Shown: positions 12,165 to 61,757 of the stretch, in pieces
Numbering within the stretch: position 1 is the first letter of the stretch
Layout of the letters: every line of letters begins with the position of its first letter
IMG/VR virus record: IMGVR_UViG_3300042923_000569
Location: 195,772-259,771 of that record
Source: a virus
Direction: 5' to 3' (one strand)
DNA length: 64,000 bases
The notes under the pieces: generated by a model
What the model saw: only the letters and a program-made list of their open reading frames with translations
Databases searched by the model: none
Told to the model about the DNA's origin: nothing
Program-made: the position numbers and the translations under genes

Positions 12165-12289
12165 TTACATCTCACGAATAGGAATCAGGATTATTTCTGA
12201 TTCATTGATACAAGGAACATCCTACGGACGTTCCAGTAAATCTCTTAACAGACTTCACTTACGTTACGTTCTGTAGAGATTTACATTTC

Positions 12290-12725
12290 TAACTTAAAAG
12301 GATTAATACGTTTAGTACTTTATACTGACGAGATTTGTTGATGCAATTTCATCCCCCCAAAAGGAGGGAAGAATAAAGGTCTGACGATGATAGTCTTAGC
12401 TTTTCATGTCACGAATTTCAAATTGAGCGGAAGCGGGTTGTCCTGTTTCTCCCTATCGCGGTTCTATACAACGGTCGTAGTCTTACTACACTGATTCTAA
12501 TAGCTACATGAACAGCTTTAGAATTGTCAAATTCAAGACGGATCTATATTGTACAAATCCAATCGCCAAATTTAACTCCCTTATACATTAGGTAGGTGCG
12601 ATCCTATATGTCTATCTAGGCATGAACTTATGTAGTACTGTCATGCTTTATACAGCCGCATTGCCGTGAGTGGTACAAACTATGCCAACATCTAACGGGT
12701 TTCTTTTGCTGTTCGTACTGAATGA
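12290..12725. other. ORF-free structured element, copy A (homologous to 61170-61640)
   Basis: ~435 bp with blocks of perfect identity to copy B (gccgcattgccg, gtacaaactatgcc, aactactcatct, ccttatatgtctatc) between divergent blocks; no ORF on the gene strand. Confidence 0.5.
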
Positions 12726-12810
12726 ACTACTCATCTGGTGTTTACTTTTCAACATCATCAGGTCTTCAACTATCCTTGTTGTACAAGGTCATTCAGAGTT
12801 TTTCTCAATT

Positions 12811-12840
12811 AAAAAAGGACAACACCCAAAGTGCTGTCCT
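12811..12840 (-). terminator. rho-independent terminator for the 273-aa gene
   Basis: on the minus strand, hairpin aggacagcactttgggtgttgtcct followed by TTTTTT. Confidence 0.6.
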
Positions 12841-12862
12841 AGTACTATTATACCACAAAAAA

Positions 12863-13684
12863 TTAAAACGTTTCATTTGTTAGCTGCATGATTTTAACAC
12901 ACAACTGCCGCATAAATTCAAAATTATTGTAGTTATATTCTTTCGTTGCATATACATCTTCATCATCATAACGGTAGAAATCAAAACACTTTTTAATATG
13001 GTCAACCGATACAGCAGTTTTGTGTATAAAATTTCGAGAATTATGTGGCACAAAATAAGTACTGAGATATGACATGATAGATGATTCATTCGAACTCAAT
13101 TCAAACTCACACAATTTAAAAACAGATTCATTGAACATAAAAGCTTTTTCATACTTTATATAAGGAATTAGTTCGTCGATAATATCCTGACGAAAAGCTT
13201 CTGGTACTTTAAACTCAAATACATCACTATCATTTGTTGGGTGAGAAAAATCGAAAAACTCTTGACTTGATGGATTATTAGGTGCGTAATAAAATCCATT
13301 AGTACTCCAACCGCTGCTGGCATCACCGGTCATTGATGCATTAGATGCTCTCTGTGCCGTATTACCAAACCCAACTTCTTTAGATTCTAGATTATAAGTA
13401 CAATAATTGTACTCAGTAACTCCTAATAATTCCAACTGAAAAGTTATTTCATCTGGAATATTAACTGGGATTATTCTAGTACAATCATTAGTATTGGAGA
13501 TGAATACATTGTTGCAACCAAACTTTGAACTTAAGTTATGAACTATTGAGTAAAAAGATGTACTTATCTCTAATGGCTTTCGGAACGTACTGTGTGGGTT
13601 TGCTGGTGTCCCCATTCCACTTGCAGAACCTATACTACCAGAACGATTGACATCGTGAAAAGTTATAAAAAAATTAACAAACAT
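12863..13684 (-). CDS. hypothetical protein (273 aa)
   Basis: ORF track. Confidence 0.55.
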   Translation of the reverse strand: MFVNFFITFHDVNRSGSIGSASGMGTPANPHSTFRKPLEISTSFYSIVHNLSSKFGCNNVFISNTNDCTRIIPVNIPDEITFQLELLGVTEYNYCTYNLESKEVGFGNTAQRASNASMTGDASSGWSTNGFYYAPNNPSSQEFFDFSHPTNDSDVFEFKVPEAFRQDIIDELIPYIKYEKAFMFNESVFKLCEFELSSNESSIMSYLSTYFVPHNSRNFIHKTAVSVDHIKKCFDFYRYDDEDVYATKEYNYNNFEFMRQLCVKIMQLTNETF

Positions 13685-43625: not shown

Positions 43626-44135
43626 ATGTTACCATTTTCAATAATGAATCACTACGGTAATGTAGTTGTACGGGATGATTATAAAAGATTTGTAGATGAG
43701 TTAACTAATGACAGTACTAATAAGTTAGTTACATACACACAGTCATACAGTCAGTTAAATGGTACTACATACAATAGGATTTACATGTACGGTACTAATT
43801 CGGTATCTGGAACTATGTGGGGAACACCTTATGGTTCTAGGATGACATGGGACAGTTCATTCAGTAGGGTAATACAGCATTGTTTTCCTACACAGTCTTT
43901 ATATAATGATTTTATTGCTAGTACAAATAATAGCAGGGTAGTATGTTTAGTACGTTCAGATATTACTACTGGAGAGAGTTATATAAGTTTAGCTAGGAAT
44001 GGATATACGAGTTCTACATACGGAAGATTTAGTGGTACGACTATAGATCAGTTCATATACTATGATGAAAGTACTGCTAGGGTGATGATATATAATCCTG
44101 GTACGATGAGTACGCCAGTTTTCTATTACAATTAA
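43626..44135 (+). CDS. hypothetical protein (169 aa), first of three MLPFP-N-terminus paralogs
   Basis: GGAGAGGG RBS; N-terminus MLPFSIMNHYGN shared with the next two genes. Confidence 0.6.
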   Translation: MLPFSIMNHYGNVVVRDDYKRFVDELTNDSTNKLVTYTQSYSQLNGTTYNRIYMYGTNSVSGTMWGTPYGSRMTWDSSFSRVIQHCFPTQSLYNDFIASTNNSRVVCLVRSDITTGESYISLARNGYTSSTYGRFSGTTIDQFIYYDESTARVMIYNPGTMSTPVFYYN

Positions 44136-44148
44136 TGAGGGGAGAGAG

Positions 44149-46170
44149 ATGTTACCATTTCCGGTTTTAAATAATTACGGTAATAATGTTATACCGCCGC
44201 AAAAGGGTATAAAGAAGTTTTCAGTTGGTGGTGGTGGACAGACGGTTATGTTACATTATGCCAATGGTGATTTATATGCAATAGGTAATAATAGCAATGG
44301 TAAGTTAGGTACAGGAGACACTACTGCTATAAGTGGGGCATGGAGAAGAATAATCACTGATGTTCGTTTATATACATGTTCACATACAGGTACTATAGTA
44401 ATAAAGAATGATGGTACTGTATGGTACTCAGGGAATATTACTTCTATATTCACTACTGCATTAGGTTATAATTTTCCTACTACATCTGCATTTACTGAGA
44501 TGACTTCTGCATTTAGTACATTTAGTATAGGGACGATTAAGTACATAGAGATGTATCAGGATTCTGGTCAGCGTTTTCATATGGTTGATGGTTCTGATCA
44601 GTTATGGGGAATAGGAAGTAATCAGTACAATGCATTAGGTAATGGTTCGAATACTGGTAATACGAATTGGGTATCTATAATAAATGGTTCTAGTGCTAAG
44701 AGTGTTCATCATTCATTAAACGTAACTTGGATGGAGAAGACTGACGGGACTTTCTGGAGTTGTGGTACTAATTCATTTGGTACATTGGCGAGTGGTGGTT
44801 CTACTACTACTGTATACAATAATTTCACTCTTATTAATAACTTTTCTATCAAGGCAATAAGTGTAACTCAGTACAACGTAACGTTATTATTAAATGACGG
44901 AACACTTAGAATATACGGAGTAAGTTCTTCTGGACAAGCAGGTAATGGAAGTACTTCAGCGGGTAACTTAATAAATCCATATCAGCCTGCATTAAATAAC
45001 GTTCGCGGGTTAGGAGACAGTACTGGTTCTTTATACAGTACACAAATAAAGGGTGTAATAACTCCTATGGGTGCTGGTACGAACACGAACACATTATTAG
45101 GTACAGGTATAGCGACTGATCCTACATTAACATTTACGAATGCTAATACCGGTGTTATGTCTAACTTAGATTATGCGAATTTAGATTTCTTCACATACGC
45201 GAGTAACACTGCTGGATATGCGGTTATAGGTAATGAGGTATATGCAGTAGGTAATAATGCATATACATTAGGTGGTGCTCTTAGTACTTGGACATTAATG
45301 AATACGCCATTGAGTACTTTATGGACGTCGAATCCTTCTTATAGTAATGTAGTTAACATAAGTACTGCTACACCTCCGTTATCTAGGAATGGACATGCTA
45401 CATGTAGTTATGGTGCTAACAAGTTCATTATGTACGGTGGAACTAACAGTGCTAATGCGTTGTTGAGTGATATATGGATATATGATGCAAGTACTTCAAC
45501 GTGGAGTCAGGTTCCTGCTGTTGCGAGTGCTGTTGCTAGGATTGGTGCAGGAATAAGTGTATTTGGTGATAAGTTATATATATTTGGTGGACAGAGTTCT
45601 ACTGCTACTGGAAGTACTACAAACAGTATGTACAGTGTAGATTTAGTTACTGGAGAGTTCACATTACTTACTACTACTAATACACCTTCAGTCAGGGCGT
45701 ATGCTTCTTTATGTACAGTGGGTTCGAGTTTATACGTATGGGGTGGAGCGAGTTTAAGTACATTCCATTCATTCAATCCGAGTACTAACGCATTTGTCAC
45801 ATTAACATCTTCACCTATATCTAGTGTAGTAGATGCGAATATGGAGACGGATGGTATTGATTTATACATTAACACATCGAGTAGTACTGCATTTTACAAG
45901 TACGATATAAGTACTGGATTATGGGTATTACTTGCTAATAAGCCGGTTAACAACGCATTGAAGTACGTTTATAATTCTGGTTATTTGTATGCTACAGTTG
46001 CGAGTACATCTACGATATATGCTTATAGGGTAGAAACGAACATGTGGAAAATGGTTGGTAGTACTACATTGAATACTACTAAGGGTTGTATGAGTTCTGC
46101 TGGTAAGAGTGTATATTACAGTGGTGGATTAACTGCGGTAGACAGTAATAACTTTTACAGAATATCATAA
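44149..46170 (+). CDS. RCC1-repeat plus Kelch-repeat beta-propeller protein (673 aa); candidate adhesin or host-interaction protein
   Basis: RCC1-like units (GNNSNGKLGTGDT, GSNQYNALGNGSN, GTNSFGTLASGG, SSSGQAGNGS) in the N-half; Kelch-like units (LYIFGGQ...YSVDL, LYVWGGAS) in the C-half; GAGGGGAG RBS. Confidence 0.6.
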   Translation: MLPFPVLNNYGNNVIPPQKGIKKFSVGGGGQTVMLHYANGDLYAIGNNSNGKLGTGDTTAISGAWRRIITDVRLYTCSHTGTIVIKNDGTVWYSGNITSIFTTALGYNFPTTSAFTEMTSAFSTFSIGTIKYIEMYQDSGQRFHMVDGSDQLWGIGSNQYNALGNGSNTGNTNWVSIINGSSAKSVHHSLNVTWMEKTDGTFWSCGTNSFGTLASGGSTTTVYNNFTLINNFSIKAISVTQYNVTLLLNDGTLRIYGVSSSGQAGNGSTSAGNLINPYQPALNNVRGLGDSTGSLYSTQIKGVITPMGAGTNTNTLLGTGIATDPTLTFTNANTGVMSNLDYANLDFFTYASNTAGYAVIGNEVYAVGNNAYTLGGALSTWTLMNTPLSTLWTSNPSYSNVVNISTATPPLSRNGHATCSYGANKFIMYGGTNSANALLSDIWIYDASTSTWSQVPAVASAVARIGAGISVFGDKLYIFGGQSSTATGSTTNSMYSVDLVTGEFTLLTTTNTPSVRAYASLCTVGSSLYVWGGASLSTFHSFNPSTNAFVTLTSSPISSVVDANMETDGIDLYINTSSSTAFYKYDISTGLWVLLANKPVNNALKYVYNSGYLYATVASTSTIYAYRVETNMWKMVGSTTLNTTKGCMSSAGKSVYYSGGLTAVDSNNFYRIS

Positions 46171-46180
46171 GGAGATTGAA

Positions 46181-47332
46181 ATGTTACCATTTCCAATTAT
46201 AAGTAATTTAAGACAACAGAGTATCTATAAGATACAAAAGTTTGTTGCTGGTTCATCGCACGTAGCAATATTAGGAACGAATGGACAGTTATTCACTAGA
46301 GGTGATAATACCTATGGACAATTAGGGGATACTTCTTATACTACCAACTATCAGGGCTGGCAATTAAGTTTATCAGACGTTGCTGGTGTATATGGTGATC
46401 GTTCACAGAATACGGTTGCCATTAAGAAAGATGGTACTGTGTGGGTATGTGGTAGATTTTGGACTGCTACACAGTTCGGTTTTACATCTACAACAGGTGC
46501 ACATTCATGGACTGAAATTACTTCGTACTTACCATTCAGTACTAATACTATTAAGGATATACAGGTTGGTTATCAGATGAGTGCATTTGTGCTTAATGAT
46601 GGTAGTGTATATTTTTGTGGTACGAATACGAATGGACAATTCGGTAATAACAATACTACTAACTTAACGAGTTATACCAAATCCCTAGCAACGGATGTAC
46701 AGAAGTTATATATACAGCATCCTCTTTGGCAGGGACAAAACGTTATATCATATATAGACAGTACTGGTAAGCCTTATGCCTGTGGTTATAACGGTACTAA
46801 GCAGGTATCTAGTAGTTCAACTATATCATCGTACAGTACATTCCAGTTATTATCGAGTGCAGTATATACTAGTGCAGCGATTGCTGGTACTACTAGTTGG
46901 TACATAAGAAGTAACGGCTCTGGTGATTATTGCGGGTCGGCCTCTGTATTACAGAATACAAACAGTGGTATATTGAATATGTATTCTGCTACAGGTAACG
47001 GTGCTACACAATTAGGAGAAATACAGTTAGCATCATTTGCAATTGTATATGGTTATAAAACTACTAATACGTTTTGGGCTAAGACTTACTATTCTGGTGG
47101 TGGGTCAGAACTACCACTAATGAATAATGTATCGAACAGGGCTAACTGGTTACAGCAAAGTACTATGCCGGTGAGTGCAGGTGTATATAGTGGAATGGCT
47201 ATGGGTAATTATAATAATGGATTTATATTATTCTTAGGTTCAGACCAGCAAGAAATATTTGGTGTTGGATTAATGAGTTCAAATAATGCAAGTACTGCAT
47301 TTGAGAAGTTAAGTATTCCAGAATTTAAATAA
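46181..47332 (+). CDS. RCC1-repeat beta-propeller protein (383 aa)
   Basis: classic RCC1 unit GDNTYGQLGDTS and GTNTNGQFGNNNTT; N-terminus MLPFPIISN. Confidence 0.6.
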   Translation: MLPFPIISNLRQQSIYKIQKFVAGSSHVAILGTNGQLFTRGDNTYGQLGDTSYTTNYQGWQLSLSDVAGVYGDRSQNTVAIKKDGTVWVCGRFWTATQFGFTSTTGAHSWTEITSYLPFSTNTIKDIQVGYQMSAFVLNDGSVYFCGTNTNGQFGNNNTTNLTSYTKSLATDVQKLYIQHPLWQGQNVISYIDSTGKPYACGYNGTKQVSSSSTISSYSTFQLLSSAVYTSAAIAGTTSWYIRSNGSGDYCGSASVLQNTNSGILNMYSATGNGATQLGEIQLASFAIVYGYKTTNTFWAKTYYSGGGSELPLMNNVSNRANWLQQSTMPVSAGVYSGMAMGNYNNGFILFLGSDQQEIFGVGLMSSNNASTAFEKLSIPEFK

Positions 47333-59101: not shown

Positions 59102-60232
59102 TTAGCTCTCAGTATGTTCACGAGACATAAACCGGCCAGTTGCAGGATCACGTGGTGGCATCTTGGCGGCCCGTTCCTGTTTTAGTCGTTCACGTTCTGC
59201 TTGTTGTTGTAGACGTTCTGTATGTTCTTGTTCACGTGCAACAGCTAATTCAGGATTAGCAGCATATGTTTCTTCAACAACGCGATTGAATTGTTCTGGA
59301 TTTAAAACATCCATAAACTCTTCCTGGAACGTAGCATTTGCTTCATCTACACTTACACCCGTTACTGAACTATAATCATTAACATCAATTTCTTTTAGAT
59401 TATAAGTTAATTTTCGTTCTGCACGTTGTACTTGACGTTCAGTGTTATTAACTGCACGTTCTTTCAACCAATCAACGTAACCATTGGCATTCATACGTGG
59501 ATGTTTCTTGTAAAGTACTAACAAGTCATTCCATGTTGGATAACCTTCTGGATCGTTATTAACACGACGATACTTACGTAACCAGATTGAATATGAACGT
59601 TGACCATCACCACACGGATCGCCGCTCATCACACGCTGTTCATTCATAACGGTATAGAGGTTTTCTGGTGGAGTGATACCAATTCGTTCACAATCTTCAA
59701 TAGTTGCATATTCAAGAACATCAGAGTTTTCTAAGTATTCTCGGAACGCATCGTTATAGTTATAGAACTCTTGATATGATTCAACACCTTTATTACGTGC
59801 AAAGTGATCAAAGAAATTATCAACATCCATAATAGTTGAATTTTCATCTAAGAACTTTGGCGTGATACAATGCTGATGTTCTGCATAATCCATGTGAATA
59901 TGCTGTTTATAATTTTCTAAAAATTCAAGCGAGTACTGTTGTTCATTATGAAACATTGAAGTTTCAATTTTAAATTCACGATTTCCGATTTTGTAGTTTG
60001 CTTCAATACAACGAATTAGAGCTTCTTCGTTAATATAATATAGTATATTACTTAAATTAATCCATGAAGCAAGAACATCAGGTGCTGCAACAAACAGACG
60101 ATTTAATAAAACTTTGTTTGATAACTCATCTTGGTAATCTTCAGATTCTTCAAGATAACGCCAAGCAACAATTTTTAATTCAGCTAAGCTAAGATCAAGT
60201 AAGCTGGTTTTATCTGAAATACGAGTAAGCAT
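59102..60232 (-). CDS. hypothetical protein (376 aa); W-rich domain mid-protein, Arg/Glu/Gln-rich C-terminus
   Basis: DPCGDGQRSYSIWLRKY...YPTWNDLLVLYKKHP...GYVDWL. Confidence 0.55.
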   Translation of the reverse strand: MLTRISDKTSLLDLSLAELKIVAWRYLEESEDYQDELSNKVLLNRLFVAAPDVLASWINLSNILYYINEEALIRCIEANYKIGNREFKIETSMFHNEQQYSLEFLENYKQHIHMDYAEHQHCITPKFLDENSTIMDVDNFFDHFARNKGVESYQEFYNYNDAFREYLENSDVLEYATIEDCERIGITPPENLYTVMNEQRVMSGDPCGDGQRSYSIWLRKYRRVNNDPEGYPTWNDLLVLYKKHPRMNANGYVDWLKERAVNNTERQVQRAERKLTYNLKEIDVNDYSSVTGVSVDEANATFQEEFMDVLNPEQFNRVVEETYAANPELAVAREQEHTERLQQQAERERLKQERAAKMPPRDPATGRFMSREHTES

Positions 60233-61032
60233 TATAGAGCCTCAAGTTCACTAAGCATTAAGTTTAAAATAATATCATCGAACCACACGCGTGCCACGGC
60301 ATAAACACCGCAAGTTTTCGCATCGGCTACATATTCTTCCCAATTAGAATAACTTGTTTTGTTATTATTTCGATAGTAATTTACCATATCACGTGTACTA
60401 TGACTAGCCATACTGCGATTATTATCATAATCAGCAGCTAGTACTTCAGCGTTAATAGTACGCATATAATAACGATCCATTACTTCAATGATTGATTTTC
60501 CATTAATAATTGAATAAATCTGTTTAAACACATTCAATACACTATCCCGGGCAGTATCATAACGTACAAAGGATGAAATACGGTCACGATCTTTAGTAAG
60601 ATCAATAAAGTTCAATACATCGCCACGTTCAGCCCTGATACCTAGAAATGCACTTACATCCATACTATCACGGTACAAATCAAAGAATTCTTTATCGATA
60701 TTCCTCTGATTTTCAATATGATATAAAGGAAGTTTTGAAGCATGGTCTTTCAATACTTGAGCAGGGATATTATAATTATGATGGATGATTGAAGTATTAA
60801 CACTTTTAGAATTAATAAAAATCTTAGTAATTTGTTCAGGAGTTAATGAGAAGTTATTAATAATACGGTCTTGTAAACGCTGAGACAAATCACCTTCTAA
60901 CATACGCTCAAACAATTCTTTATCAGATAGAATGTTACGTAATTCGTCACGATCTACTTGGTCAAAACAGAAAGAATTAATATTCTCTGAATTAATTTCA
61001 GATGGTTCAGCCCTTAAATGAATCTTACCCAT
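60232..61032 (-). CDS. hypothetical protein (266 aa)
   Basis: ORF track. Confidence 0.55.
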   Translation of the reverse strand: MGKIHLRAEPSEINSENINSFCFDQVDRDELRNILSDKELFERMLEGDLSQRLQDRIINNFSLTPEQITKIFINSKSVNTSIIHHNYNIPAQVLKDHASKLPLYHIENQRNIDKEFFDLYRDSMDVSAFLGIRAERGDVLNFIDLTKDRDRISSFVRYDTARDSVLNVFKQIYSIINGKSIIEVMDRYYMRTINAEVLAADYDNNRSMASHSTRDMVNYYRNNNKTSYSNWEEYVADAKTCGVYAVARVWFDDIILNLMLSELEAL

Positions 61033-61169
61033 TTAAATTATTACCTTAAAGTTATGGTTAAAAGAATGCTACTCGCCTTGCTTACGCAAGTCAATGATTT
61101 TGTTCTCTGCGAGAATCAAAATCTACTTTAATAATTATTCTGTTATTAAAAGAACCTTTAATATCAAAA

Positions 61170-61640
61170 CACTTATGAAAGTACTTCATAACTTACCTAT
61201 CTTATACTGACAAGATTTGTAGAGGCAATTTCATCCCCCACAAGGGGAACGAATCTGACAATGATAGTCGTCGGTATATTGTATTGAGAATTACTTTTCA
61301 GTACAGAAGCGGGTTGTTCGGTATTCTTCTTATCTCAGTTCTAACAACGGTCGAGGTCTTAGCTCTCTAAGTGCCAGGTCTATACAATCAAACCCAGCAC
61401 CTGAATAGTCATAAAATTTGGACGCAACTATACTGTACAAATTTCGATGCTATTCTCCCTTATACTATTTGGTAAGGTGCATCCTTATATGTCTATCGAG
61501 GAAGTACTGTTAAGTATTAGATGTACTTCTTTATAGTGCCGCATTGCCGAGGGAGGTACAAACTATGCCTTCACCTATCGGGTTTCTTCTGCACTTCGTA
61601 CTGCTTGAACTACTCATCTATCAATTACATTTTCATTGAA
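61170..61640. other. ORF-free structured element, copy B (homologous to 12290-12725)
   Basis: same block structure as copy A; contains a GAGGGAGG-N8-ATG mini-ORF of 24 codons on the plus strand. Confidence 0.5.
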
Positions 61641-61757
61641 GTAGGAACAAAACATTAGGGGCATTACGCCCCTATCAAACAGAGTTTTATTATCACAGGT
61701 ACATTATACCACATTAATCGAAGTCGTTTCAAAAAATGTGTAGATTGTATAGTACCC

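Follow-up and report, generated by a model that had tools for sequence, protein, structure and literature searches.

The 64,000-nucleotide (nt) stretch of viral DNA analysed here (IMG/VR record IMGVR_UViG_3300042923_000569, positions 195,772 to 259,771), hereafter the window, contains two homologous elements, copy A at ~12306–12876 and copy B at ~61200–61732 in window coordinates. We propose, with a probability of roughly 0.9, that each element is the gene for a non-coding RNA (ncRNA) of ~0.45–0.55 kb, whose sense is that of the window's minus strand, with a predicted promoter of its own of the TG-extended, sigma-70-consensus type, and with a fold of two domains, about 15 helices and four pseudoknots. 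The RNA family is previously undescribed and is confined to jumbo phages of the Rak2-like group and to a small number of chromosomal islands in enterobacteria. For its function, we tentatively suggest a locus-bound role, in which the transcript would act as an R-loop primer at a replication origin.

The closest DNA relatives of the window are the Rak2-like jumbo phages, of 350–380 kb. Xanthomonas phage XbC2 and Erwinia phage Kaldavass are ~86% identical to the window and Cronobacter phage GAP32 is 82% identical; further relatives are the Erwinia, Serratia and Yersinia Eneladusviruses, Pectobacterium phage CBB, and the Asteriusviruses of E. coli and Salmonella. A sequence-only reading of the window had described two homologous elements that align over their whole length and share perfectly conserved blocks. 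A blastn comparison of the window with itself bears this out, as 12320–12736 aligns with 61202–61619 at 72.5% identity over 436 columns (E 3e-47), and the blocks are found in both copies. One block, ccttatatgtctatc, is exact from tatatgtctatc on, but its start differs in copy A, which has tcctatatgtctatc. The G-to-A change said to occur in parallel in the direct repeats is there (CTGACGAG and CTGACGATGATAGTC versus CTGACAAG and CTGACAATGATAGTC). No third copy was found within the window by the blastn self-search or by nhmmer. The long gaps poor in open reading frames (ORFs) are also real, 12165–12862 (698 bp) for copy A and 61033–61757 (725 bp) for copy B, and they are the longest such gaps nearby; nearly all ORFs of the window lie on the minus strand. 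The unit that is homologous and under selection is larger than the reported coordinates on both sides, with its right end reaching the conserved promoter and its left end running beyond the first direct repeat. Of the terminators reported beside the two copies, that of copy A stands, but the one assigned to copy B, at 61656–61674, is a conserved hairpin of the RNA itself.

Covariation and the strand of the RNA

IMG/VR, metagenomes and GTDB genomes were scanned for a sequence pattern and then searched with nhmmer, which gave 82 distinct full-length members of the family. Covariation statistics were obtained for each domain from 32 diverse members, aligned with nhmmer and hmmalign. The consensus fold of the 5′ domain has 44 pairs, with 96.5% of the cells canonical and compensatory double changes in 30 of the 44 pairs. 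Its covariation score is 0.529, against 0.097 or less for slid controls, and none of 500 shuffles scored as high. The 3′ domain has 40 pairs, 93% canonical and 30 with compensatory changes, and a score of 0.578 against 0.12 or less for slid controls; again, no shuffle of 500 reaches it. In total, ~84 base pairs in about 15 helices and four pseudoknots are supported, 60 of the 84 pairs by double changes. Compensatory changes well above slid and shuffled controls are what is generally expected of a structured ncRNA, and a large structured ncRNA, one of the options offered by the sequence-only reading, is thus strongly supported.

The strand of the RNA can be read from the G·U pairs. On the minus strand, the helices in which the alignment register is safe contain, in the 82 sequences, 84 G·U cells versus 3 A·C cells (G·U:A·C is 21:1 in P11, 50:0 in P12, 11:2 in PK3, 1:0 in PK4 and 1:0 in P5a). 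The closing helix, P1, is seen in the minus orientation only and has 13 G·U cells. Three of the four helices of the conserved core of the 3′ domain (its helices 5–7) show nothing but canonical pairs (100%) when read on the minus strand, 24 of the cells being G·U, and over the 82 sequences the core has 72 G·U versus 1 A·C. The G·U excess, the G·U cells of P1, and the conserved promoter on that strand together decide for the minus strand as the RNA strand. The plus strand was favoured by early automatic counts, whose numbers had been raised by faulty register in variable hairpins and by extra G·U pairs at the ends of helices. Comparison of minimum free energies and a fold restricted to Watson–Crick pairs were uninformative on the strand, and a column-pair covariation scan without phylogenetic correction was too noisy and was not used.

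The promoter has the form (T/A)TGAAAC, N17–18, TGnTATAAT and is found directly upstream of all 34 aligned members (34/34) and of the island copies. In the Asteriusviruses, TGAGACA replaces TGAAAC. It belongs to the TGAAACG-type promoter class that has been noted for CBB and GAP32 (PMC5259590). The copies of paralog clades 2 and 5 have a divergent gene on one side and a convergent gene on the other, with a strong terminator after the RNA. These copies stand alone, and therefore the RNA is an independent gene and not merely the leader of an mRNA.

The conservation pattern had been described as unlike that of a drifting coding sequence, and rightly so. It is very improbable that the element is a decayed protein-coding gene or that the mini-ORF MP(T/S)(S/P)NGFLL... 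on its plus strand is a genuine gene for a small protein, although both window copies have a plus-strand ORF of 24–73 codons. The differences between the copies follow base pairing rather than codon position, and the indels between them are not multiples of three. The ATG context of the mini-ORF is present in 48 of the 82 members, and the ORF varies from 6 to 35 amino acids (aa), with early stops such as MPTPNG*. The loop that bears the ATG is swapped for other sequence in copy A of GAP32 and of the Yersinia phage and in all island copies. The GGAGG ribosome-binding sequence, reported before the mini-ORF in both copies, is in copy B only, copy A having GAGTGG. This putative Shine–Dalgarno sequence and codons 2–6 are the two covarying arms of stem P5. 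The mini-ORF is thus not supported as a gene, and it lies on the plus strand, opposite to that of the RNA.

Distribution in jumbo phages and bacterial islands

The element was found in 62 of 50,697 phage records, all of them Rak2-like jumbo phages with the element in 3–5 places per genome, and it is absent from the other phage groups in these records. Existing annotations show at most an occasional short “hypothetical” coding sequence there. Among 72,556 plasmids, none carries the element. A 370,971-nt contig has five copies, all on one strand, at 21.0, 105.4, 186.5, 250.9, and 311.2 kb, separated by gaps of 84.5, 81.1, 64.4, 60.2, and 80.8 kb. This is the one contig in which all five copies were located; in CBB, GAP32, BF, and other genomes, the gaps are 55–85 kb, or about double that length where one copy was not fetched. 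The genes flanking copy A are the same in GAP32 and in the Yersinia phage, and the fetched paralog types occupy corresponding positions in the genomes of CBB, GAP32, and BF. The shared flanks and corresponding positions suggest that the duplications are old and that each position has been retained. The unrelated flanks of the two window copies, as noted in the sequence-only reading, are accounted for by five old, evenly spaced paralogous loci.

Outside phages, a complete element with its promoter is found once per chromosome in Serratia fonticola, Serratia sp. 2723, Citrobacter amalonaticus, and an Enterobacteriaceae metagenome-assembled genome (MAG), and as one copy each in 2 of 5,426 E. coli genomes. 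Serratia sp. L9 has a partial copy. The hosts carry the element in small integrative islands with defence-like cargo. In most of them, a large serine recombinase adjoins the element, and in some islands there is additionally a CI/LexA-like repressor or a pair of ParB/RepB-like genes. In the E. coli island, the place of the serine recombinase is taken by a disrupted tyrosine integrase together with a small resolvase. The cargo includes a 309-aa reverse transcriptase beside a 299-aa ORF (L244, 135–2272), a Cap4-like nuclease with an SMC/AAA protein (L200, 1172–4580), and, in the E. coli island, mSLOG/DUF4326, DUF488, and DuOB genes (L254, 23035–24766). No island protein was found in common with the jumbo phages; the RNA and its promoter are the only module that islands and phages share. 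Two further sequences, from a Clostridia MAG (L186) and a Burkholderiales MAG (L187), matched a 23-base search pattern and gave no nhmmer hit at E ≤1e-3; they are chance matches or very distant relatives.

Fold, promoter overlap and 3′ end

The features of the two window copies are collected in Table 1. Helices are designated P, pseudoknots PK, and direct repeats DR.

Table 1. Position of the promoters, helices, pseudoknots, and 3′ elements of the RNA in the two copies (window coordinates).
Feature	Copy A	Copy B	Strand	Remarks
Promoter	12847–12876	61703–61732	minus	Copy A: −35-like ATGAAA(CG) 12871–12876, TG-extended −10 TGTGGTATAAT 12847–12857, 10/12 matches + TG. Copy B: TTGAAA 61727–61732, 18 nt, TGTGGTATAAT 61703–61713, 11/12 matches + TG
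Intrinsic terminator of upstream gene	12811–12840		minus	Copy A only; 11-bp hairpin + U6; upstream stop codon at 12863
Structured core, P1 to DR-2	12381–12796 (5′ domain 12576–12796, 3′ domain 12381–12583)	61255–61682	minus	Copy A from consensus folds and pair counts; copy B mapped from the consensus structure
P1, closing helix	CUGAAUGA 12789–12796 with UCAUUCAG 12718–12725	61675–61682 with 61601–61608	minus	98% paired, 4 covarying pairs
P2, hairpin	12774–12788	61656–61674	minus	Inside P1; covariation fold
P3, hairpin	12735–12762	61618–61645	minus	Inside P1; loop GAAAAGUAA; covariation fold
P4	ACAGC 12708–12712 with GCUGU 12652–12656	61591–61595 with 61535–61539	minus	399/399 Watson–Crick in 82 sequences
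P5, long hairpin	12664–12698	61547–61581	minus	Enclosed by P4; loop GGCAUAGUUUGUACC contains the reverse complement of the mini-ORF ATG
PK1, 3 bp	AUG 12659–12661 with CAU 12608–12610		minus	246/246 cells Watson–Crick (82 sequences)
P6, variable hairpin	12620–12646	61501–61529	minus	Bridged by PK1
P7, hairpin (UAGG/CCUA)	12593–12606	61473–61487	minus	Covariation fold
PK2	P7 loop AUCGC 12598–12602 with GCGAU 12562–12566	Partner strand 61446–61450	minus	Alignment reading
Invariant UAAGGGAG	12576–12583		minus	Between P7 and PK2 partner strand
P8 module	12531–12558	61416–61442	minus	Degenerate in copy A; consensus UUUGUAC-AAUAUAGAUCC-GUCCAAA
P9, hairpin	12495–12523	61370–61401	minus	Covariation fold
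PK3, 7 bp	P9 loop UUCAUGU 12506–12512 with ACAUGAA 12403–12409	3′ strand 61278–61284	minus	3′ strand ~100 nt downstream
P10, hairpin	12477–12489	61353–61367	minus	Within PK3 span
Conserved pseudoknotted core	12410–12476	61285–61352 (PK4/P11/P12)	minus
PK4	GUUGU 12468–12472 with ACAAC 12437–12441		minus	In core
P11	CGCGA 12456–12460 with UCGUG 12410–12414		minus	In core
P12	GGGAG 12449–12453 with CUUCC 12429–12433		minus	In core
P13, 3-bp stem	UCA 12424–12426 with UGA 12417–12419		minus	In stretch 12415–12427
DR-2	12381–12395 (GACUAUCAUCGUCAG)	61255–61269	minus	Second CTGACG motif of the sequence-only reading
3′ extension	12306–12373	61200–61253	minus	P14, DR-1, and the motifs below
P14, G/C hairpin	12348–12373	61230–61253	minus	Copy A: contains near-invariant GGGGGGAUG
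DR-1	12325–12337 (CAAAUCUCGUCAG)	61207–61219 (CAAAUCUUGUCAG)	minus
UAUAAAG (A), UAUAAGA (B)	12318–12324	61200–61206	minus	Copy A: resembles T4 late promoter
Small hairpin GUAC-UAAAC-GUAU	12306–12318		minus	Wobbles fit minus strand only (alignment read by eye)
Downstream hairpin	12236–12284		minus	ACGNAGUG-type loop; membership in RNA uncertain
Long hairpin downstream of copy B		61096–61123	minus
Separate sigma-70-type promoter		TTGACT 61089–61094, 17 nt, TAGCAT 61066–61071	minus	After copy B, for the gene starting at 61032

In PK1, a G-C to A-U double change has occurred in at least three lineages. PK2 is found as AUCGC/GCGAU, GAUGC/GCAUC, GUGCA/UGCAC, GAUAC/GUAUC, and AUCAC/GUGAU. PK3 is paired in all 26 of the 26 sequences outside clade 1, with five pairs covarying, and over the 82 sequences it has 498 Watson–Crick, 11 G·U, and 2 A·C cells. 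Its sequence is specific to the paralog, as follows: UUCAUGU/ACAUGAA, AUUGUAU/AUACAAU, UUCGCAU/AUGCGAA, and GUCGAAU/AUUCGAC. The P8 module, of ~27 nt, is at P8 in most paralogs and inside P13 in clades 1 and 4, much as the peripheral tertiary modules of large ribozymes relocate. RNAalifold proposed a further pairing, of GUC in DR-2 with GAC of GACCGUUG, which is refuted by an island copy (L184) in which GUC has become GAC with no compensating change.

The start site of copy A is predicted to be near 12840. The terminator hairpin of the upstream gene begins 3–6 nt past the −10 box, and the predicted start site is therefore at, or just inside, the 5′ arm of the hairpin. The same geometry is found in A-type and clade-1 paralogs elsewhere, with the overlap of terminator and promoter seen at L028, L072, L073, L031, L074, L075, and L011. 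With this layout, read-through transcripts meet the full terminator, and transcripts initiated at the promoter begin at or inside its 5′ arm.

At the 3′ end, DR-1 is often followed in the family by a UAUAAA(U) motif, similar to a T4 late promoter, and then a small hairpin. A terminator-like hairpin with a U7 run lies between DR-2 and P14 in clades 1, 2, 4, and 5 and is absent from both window copies; in clade 1, DR-2 itself is the 5′ arm of this hairpin. Within a single copy, DR-1 and DR-2 undergo the same change: U stands for C in both repeats of copy B and of a metagenome group, and A for U in both repeats of a Serratia island. Both strands were scanned over at least 150 nt on the upstream and 400 nt on the downstream side of each element, and no partner complementary to the direct repeats was found. 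A reading of the repeats as −35 boxes of promoters on the plus strand was rejected, since this is the wrong strand and its −10 matches are weak. A hairpin with the loop (G)AACGNAGUG(A) recurs 60–150 nt downstream of phage and island copies (L185, L181, L200, L033, L017).

B-type copies in general have a long hairpin and a separate sigma-70 promoter after them, and the promoter is kept in B-type orthologs as TTGACT, N17, TAnnAT. The genes just downstream of copy B (59102–60232 and 60232–61032, minus strand) are tandem paralogs, both of phrog_15843, a family of unknown function. The gene after the clade-4 copy (L051, L069) is ADP-ribosylglycohydrolase-like, on the basis of a tblastn match (28% identity, E 1e-17 to 1e-18) to a DraG-like protein of bacteria. 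The functions of the genes that flank the phage copies gave no clue to the role of the RNA. The sole sizeable plus-strand gene block of the window, with genes of 169, 673, and 383 aa, is at 43626–47332, and the GC skew is locally inverted there (+0.18 to +0.23).

Possible functions and comparison with known RNAs

A replication-related site was among the options of the sequence-only reading. A locus-bound role at an origin is tentatively favoured, since the copies hold retained and evenly spaced positions on a single strand and each has a promoter, since the RNA has a G-run, iteron-like repeats, and an A/T-rich 3′ end, and since islands have captured the element. Transcription by the host RNA polymerase early in infection would yield a folded pre-primer. 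The G-run and the 3′ part of the RNA, that is, GGGGGGAUG, the direct repeats, and the A/T-rich stretch, would remain paired with the template in an R-loop, which the phage replisome would use much as in ColE1 RNA II or T4 oriF/oriG. The near-invariant GGGGGGAUG, the iteron-like direct repeats, and the A/T-rich stretch after them are consistent with such a mechanism. In an island, the single copy might allow the defence island to be replicated by, or to compete with, an infecting jumbo phage. It is tempting to extend this to the whole chromosome and to propose that the five elements are the origins of the jumbo phage, fired through a pseudoknotted pre-primer, and that islands have captured one for their own amplification or to titrate the initiation machinery; this fuller proposal is doubtful.

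Several observations weigh against the origin role. Four pseudoknots and near-invariant single-stranded blocks exceed the needs of known primer RNAs and bring to mind a ribozyme or the scaffold of a ribonucleoprotein instead. Cumulative GC skew has no inflection at 12.3 or 61.4 kb, a weak point as transcription dominates the skew in the window, and no link to an initiator protein or RNase H was found. The chance that the smallest gap between the five copies is 60 kb or more is 0.0013, but this spacing statistic comes from closely related genomes and is essentially one observation, and even spacing could equally fit dosage or the organisation of transcription units. The inspected islands are small and carry defence genes, and their replication during infection is part of the proposal only. 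The transcript itself and the start of replication at these loci are both predictions from sequence.

About equally likely as the origin and R-loop role is that the same gene makes a free, trans-acting “ornate” RNA or ribonucleoprotein. Such a product might serve as an anti-defence decoy, might regulate or sponge up a host or phage protein, or might self-assemble as ROOL and GOLLD do. The five copies would then provide dosage or variant subunits, and islands would carry an anti-defence or decoy gene. The complex and strongly conserved fold, with its invariant unpaired blocks UAAGGGAG, GAUAGACAUAU, CGGCAAUGCGGC, and AACCCGC, fits such a molecule, as do the free-standing clade 2 and clade 5 genes with a promoter and terminators to themselves, the movement of the RNA alone between phages and defence islands, and the precedent of ROOL and GOLLD as large phage-associated RNAs. 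Moreover, the paralog-specific strands of PK3 (ACAUGAA, AUACAAU, AUGCGAA, AUUCGAC) could make an intermolecular kissing contact. However, a diffusible product leaves five diverged, even, and syntenic copies on one strand unexplained, no protein partner was found to co-occur in phages and islands, and Rfam shows no similarity.

An improbable reading is that the RNA is a cis-acting 5′ leader of long transcription units, whether an antitermination RNA of the put/EAR type, an attenuator, or a riboswitch. It would account for an RNA that begins at a strong promoter and runs in the direction of almost all genes, for the U7 hairpin after DR-2 in clades 1, 2, 4, and 5, and for even spacing, which suits restart points of 60–85 kb transcription units. 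Yet the element is not always in the 5′ leader of regulated genes: no gene in the same orientation follows the copies of clades 2 and 5, which stop at a bidirectional terminator, and B-type copies precede the separate sigma-70 promoter of the next gene. In addition, the downstream genes have no common function, the window copies have no internal U-run terminator, and ~450 nt is several times the length of any known antitermination RNA or riboswitch. Still less probable is a selfish or mobile RNA or DNA element, similar to an intron, a retroelement, or a miniature inverted-repeat transposable element, of which the direct repeats would be traces of insertion or excision. Several copies per genome with unrelated flanks, presence in replicons as unrelated as virulent phages and integrative islands, parallel change of the direct repeats, and the move of the ~27-nt module between P8 and P13 would agree with mobility. 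In contrast, the copies are ~70% identical and at least copy A keeps its synteny from one phage genus to another, as would be expected of old duplications and not of recent transposition. The phage copies have no linked transposase, reverse transcriptase, or endonuclease, each copy has its own promoter, Rfam gives no group I/II intron or ribozyme signal, and the flanking genes are intact, not split. The remnant of a mobile element, as the sequence-only reading had offered, is thus unlikely, given that the copies are very old, keep their synteny, and show selection on structure.

It is rare for a large RNA to have so many conserved helices and pseudoknots, and others of this kind have proved to be ribozymes, ribonucleoprotein scaffolds, or self-assembling particles. 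This one fills the longest non-coding gaps of widely isolated jumbo phages that are therapeutic candidates, namely GAP32, PBECO4/121Q, CBB, and the Erwinia, Serratia, and Yersinia Eneladusviruses. Five even paralogs on one strand give a testable hypothesis for how a 350-kb phage chromosome starts its replication or is organised, and the only module held in common with islands that carry defence cargo suggests that jumbo phages and mobile elements of the host interact in a way not seen before. If the fuller proposal of five origins and their capture by islands holds, it would add a class of structured primer RNA and a kind of origin piracy, both of them new.

Searches against known RNAs gave no match. 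An Rfam scan had been put forward in the sequence-only reading; none of the 4227 families of Rfam 15, which cover introns, ribozymes, RNase P, 6S, tmRNA, riboswitches, ROOL, GOLLD, OLE, and HEARO, hit the whole window at gathering score, and so none matched the element. At E ≤10, the segment 12100–12900 gave chance-level hits only, of 21.5 bits or less and mostly to the terminator hairpin. ARAGORN found no tRNA or tmRNA gene in the window (0 genes). The ideas of a group I intron, a tmRNA, and RNase P have no support from Rfam or ARAGORN. A hammerhead ribozyme was considered for the plus-strand CUGACGAG, which resembles CUGANGA; this motif lies on the strand opposite to the RNA, the essential G8 is replaced by A in copy B, no GAAA box or stem II follows the motif, and there is no Rfam hit. 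A literature search found no paper that describes this RNA. The related jumbo phage PA5oct makes an abundant ncRNA of ~450 nt, ncRNA002, defined by RNA-seq and on the gene strand (PMC7318152), which may be an analogue. The family profile had no nhmmer hit at E ≤10 in positions 1–40000 of PA5oct, where ncRNA002 is located (L180, 21951–22401).

Among smaller phage systems, the PeSL cassettes (promoter-early stem-loop) of T4-type phages are not known to have a structured RNA of ~450 nt behind them. The A-type and clade-1 copies would resemble them in having a sigma-70 promoter and then a stem-loop that terminates upstream transcription (12811–12876), a likeness that covers only the first ~60 nt. 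Like the put RNA of HK022 and the Bacillus EAR element, which act in RNA-mediated processive antitermination, the present phage RNA is promoter-proximal, structured, and co-directional with long gene arrays; unlike them, it is 4–6 times larger, and some copies stand alone, ending at terminators with no downstream gene. The packaging RNA (pRNA) of phi29 is likewise a structured, phage-encoded RNA from an early promoter, and the paralog-specific PK3 could in principle be intermolecular; however, pRNA is 174 nt long and single-copy, the two have no homology, and no link to portal or terminase was seen for this RNA.

ColE1 RNA II is a folded pre-primer of ~550 nt, and T4 has several promoter-dependent R-loop origins. 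The RNA described here is like them in its strong promoter, a folded transcript of ~500 nt, a 3′ G-run and A/T-rich region, several sites per phage genome, and a capacity to work with no gene of its own beside it. It differs in a four-pseudoknot fold that is far more elaborate, and priming through an R-loop is here a proposal. Unlike ColE1, no antisense regulator similar to RNA I was found, and there is no sequence similarity.

ROOL and GOLLD are large phage-associated RNAs without a known function. With RNAs of the ROOL, GOLLD, and OLE type, the present RNA has in common a length of ~0.45–0.55 kb, many helices and several pseudoknots under strong structural selection, an association with phages or mobile elements, and the lack of an ORF. 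It does not match them in sequence or structure, and it belongs to enterobacterial jumbo phages, not to Firmicutes or prophages. A genome has as many as five diverged copies of it, evenly spaced where all five were located, and every copy has a promoter to itself. If it is a free particle, it would be a Proteobacterial, phage-borne member of the short list of “ornate” RNAs.

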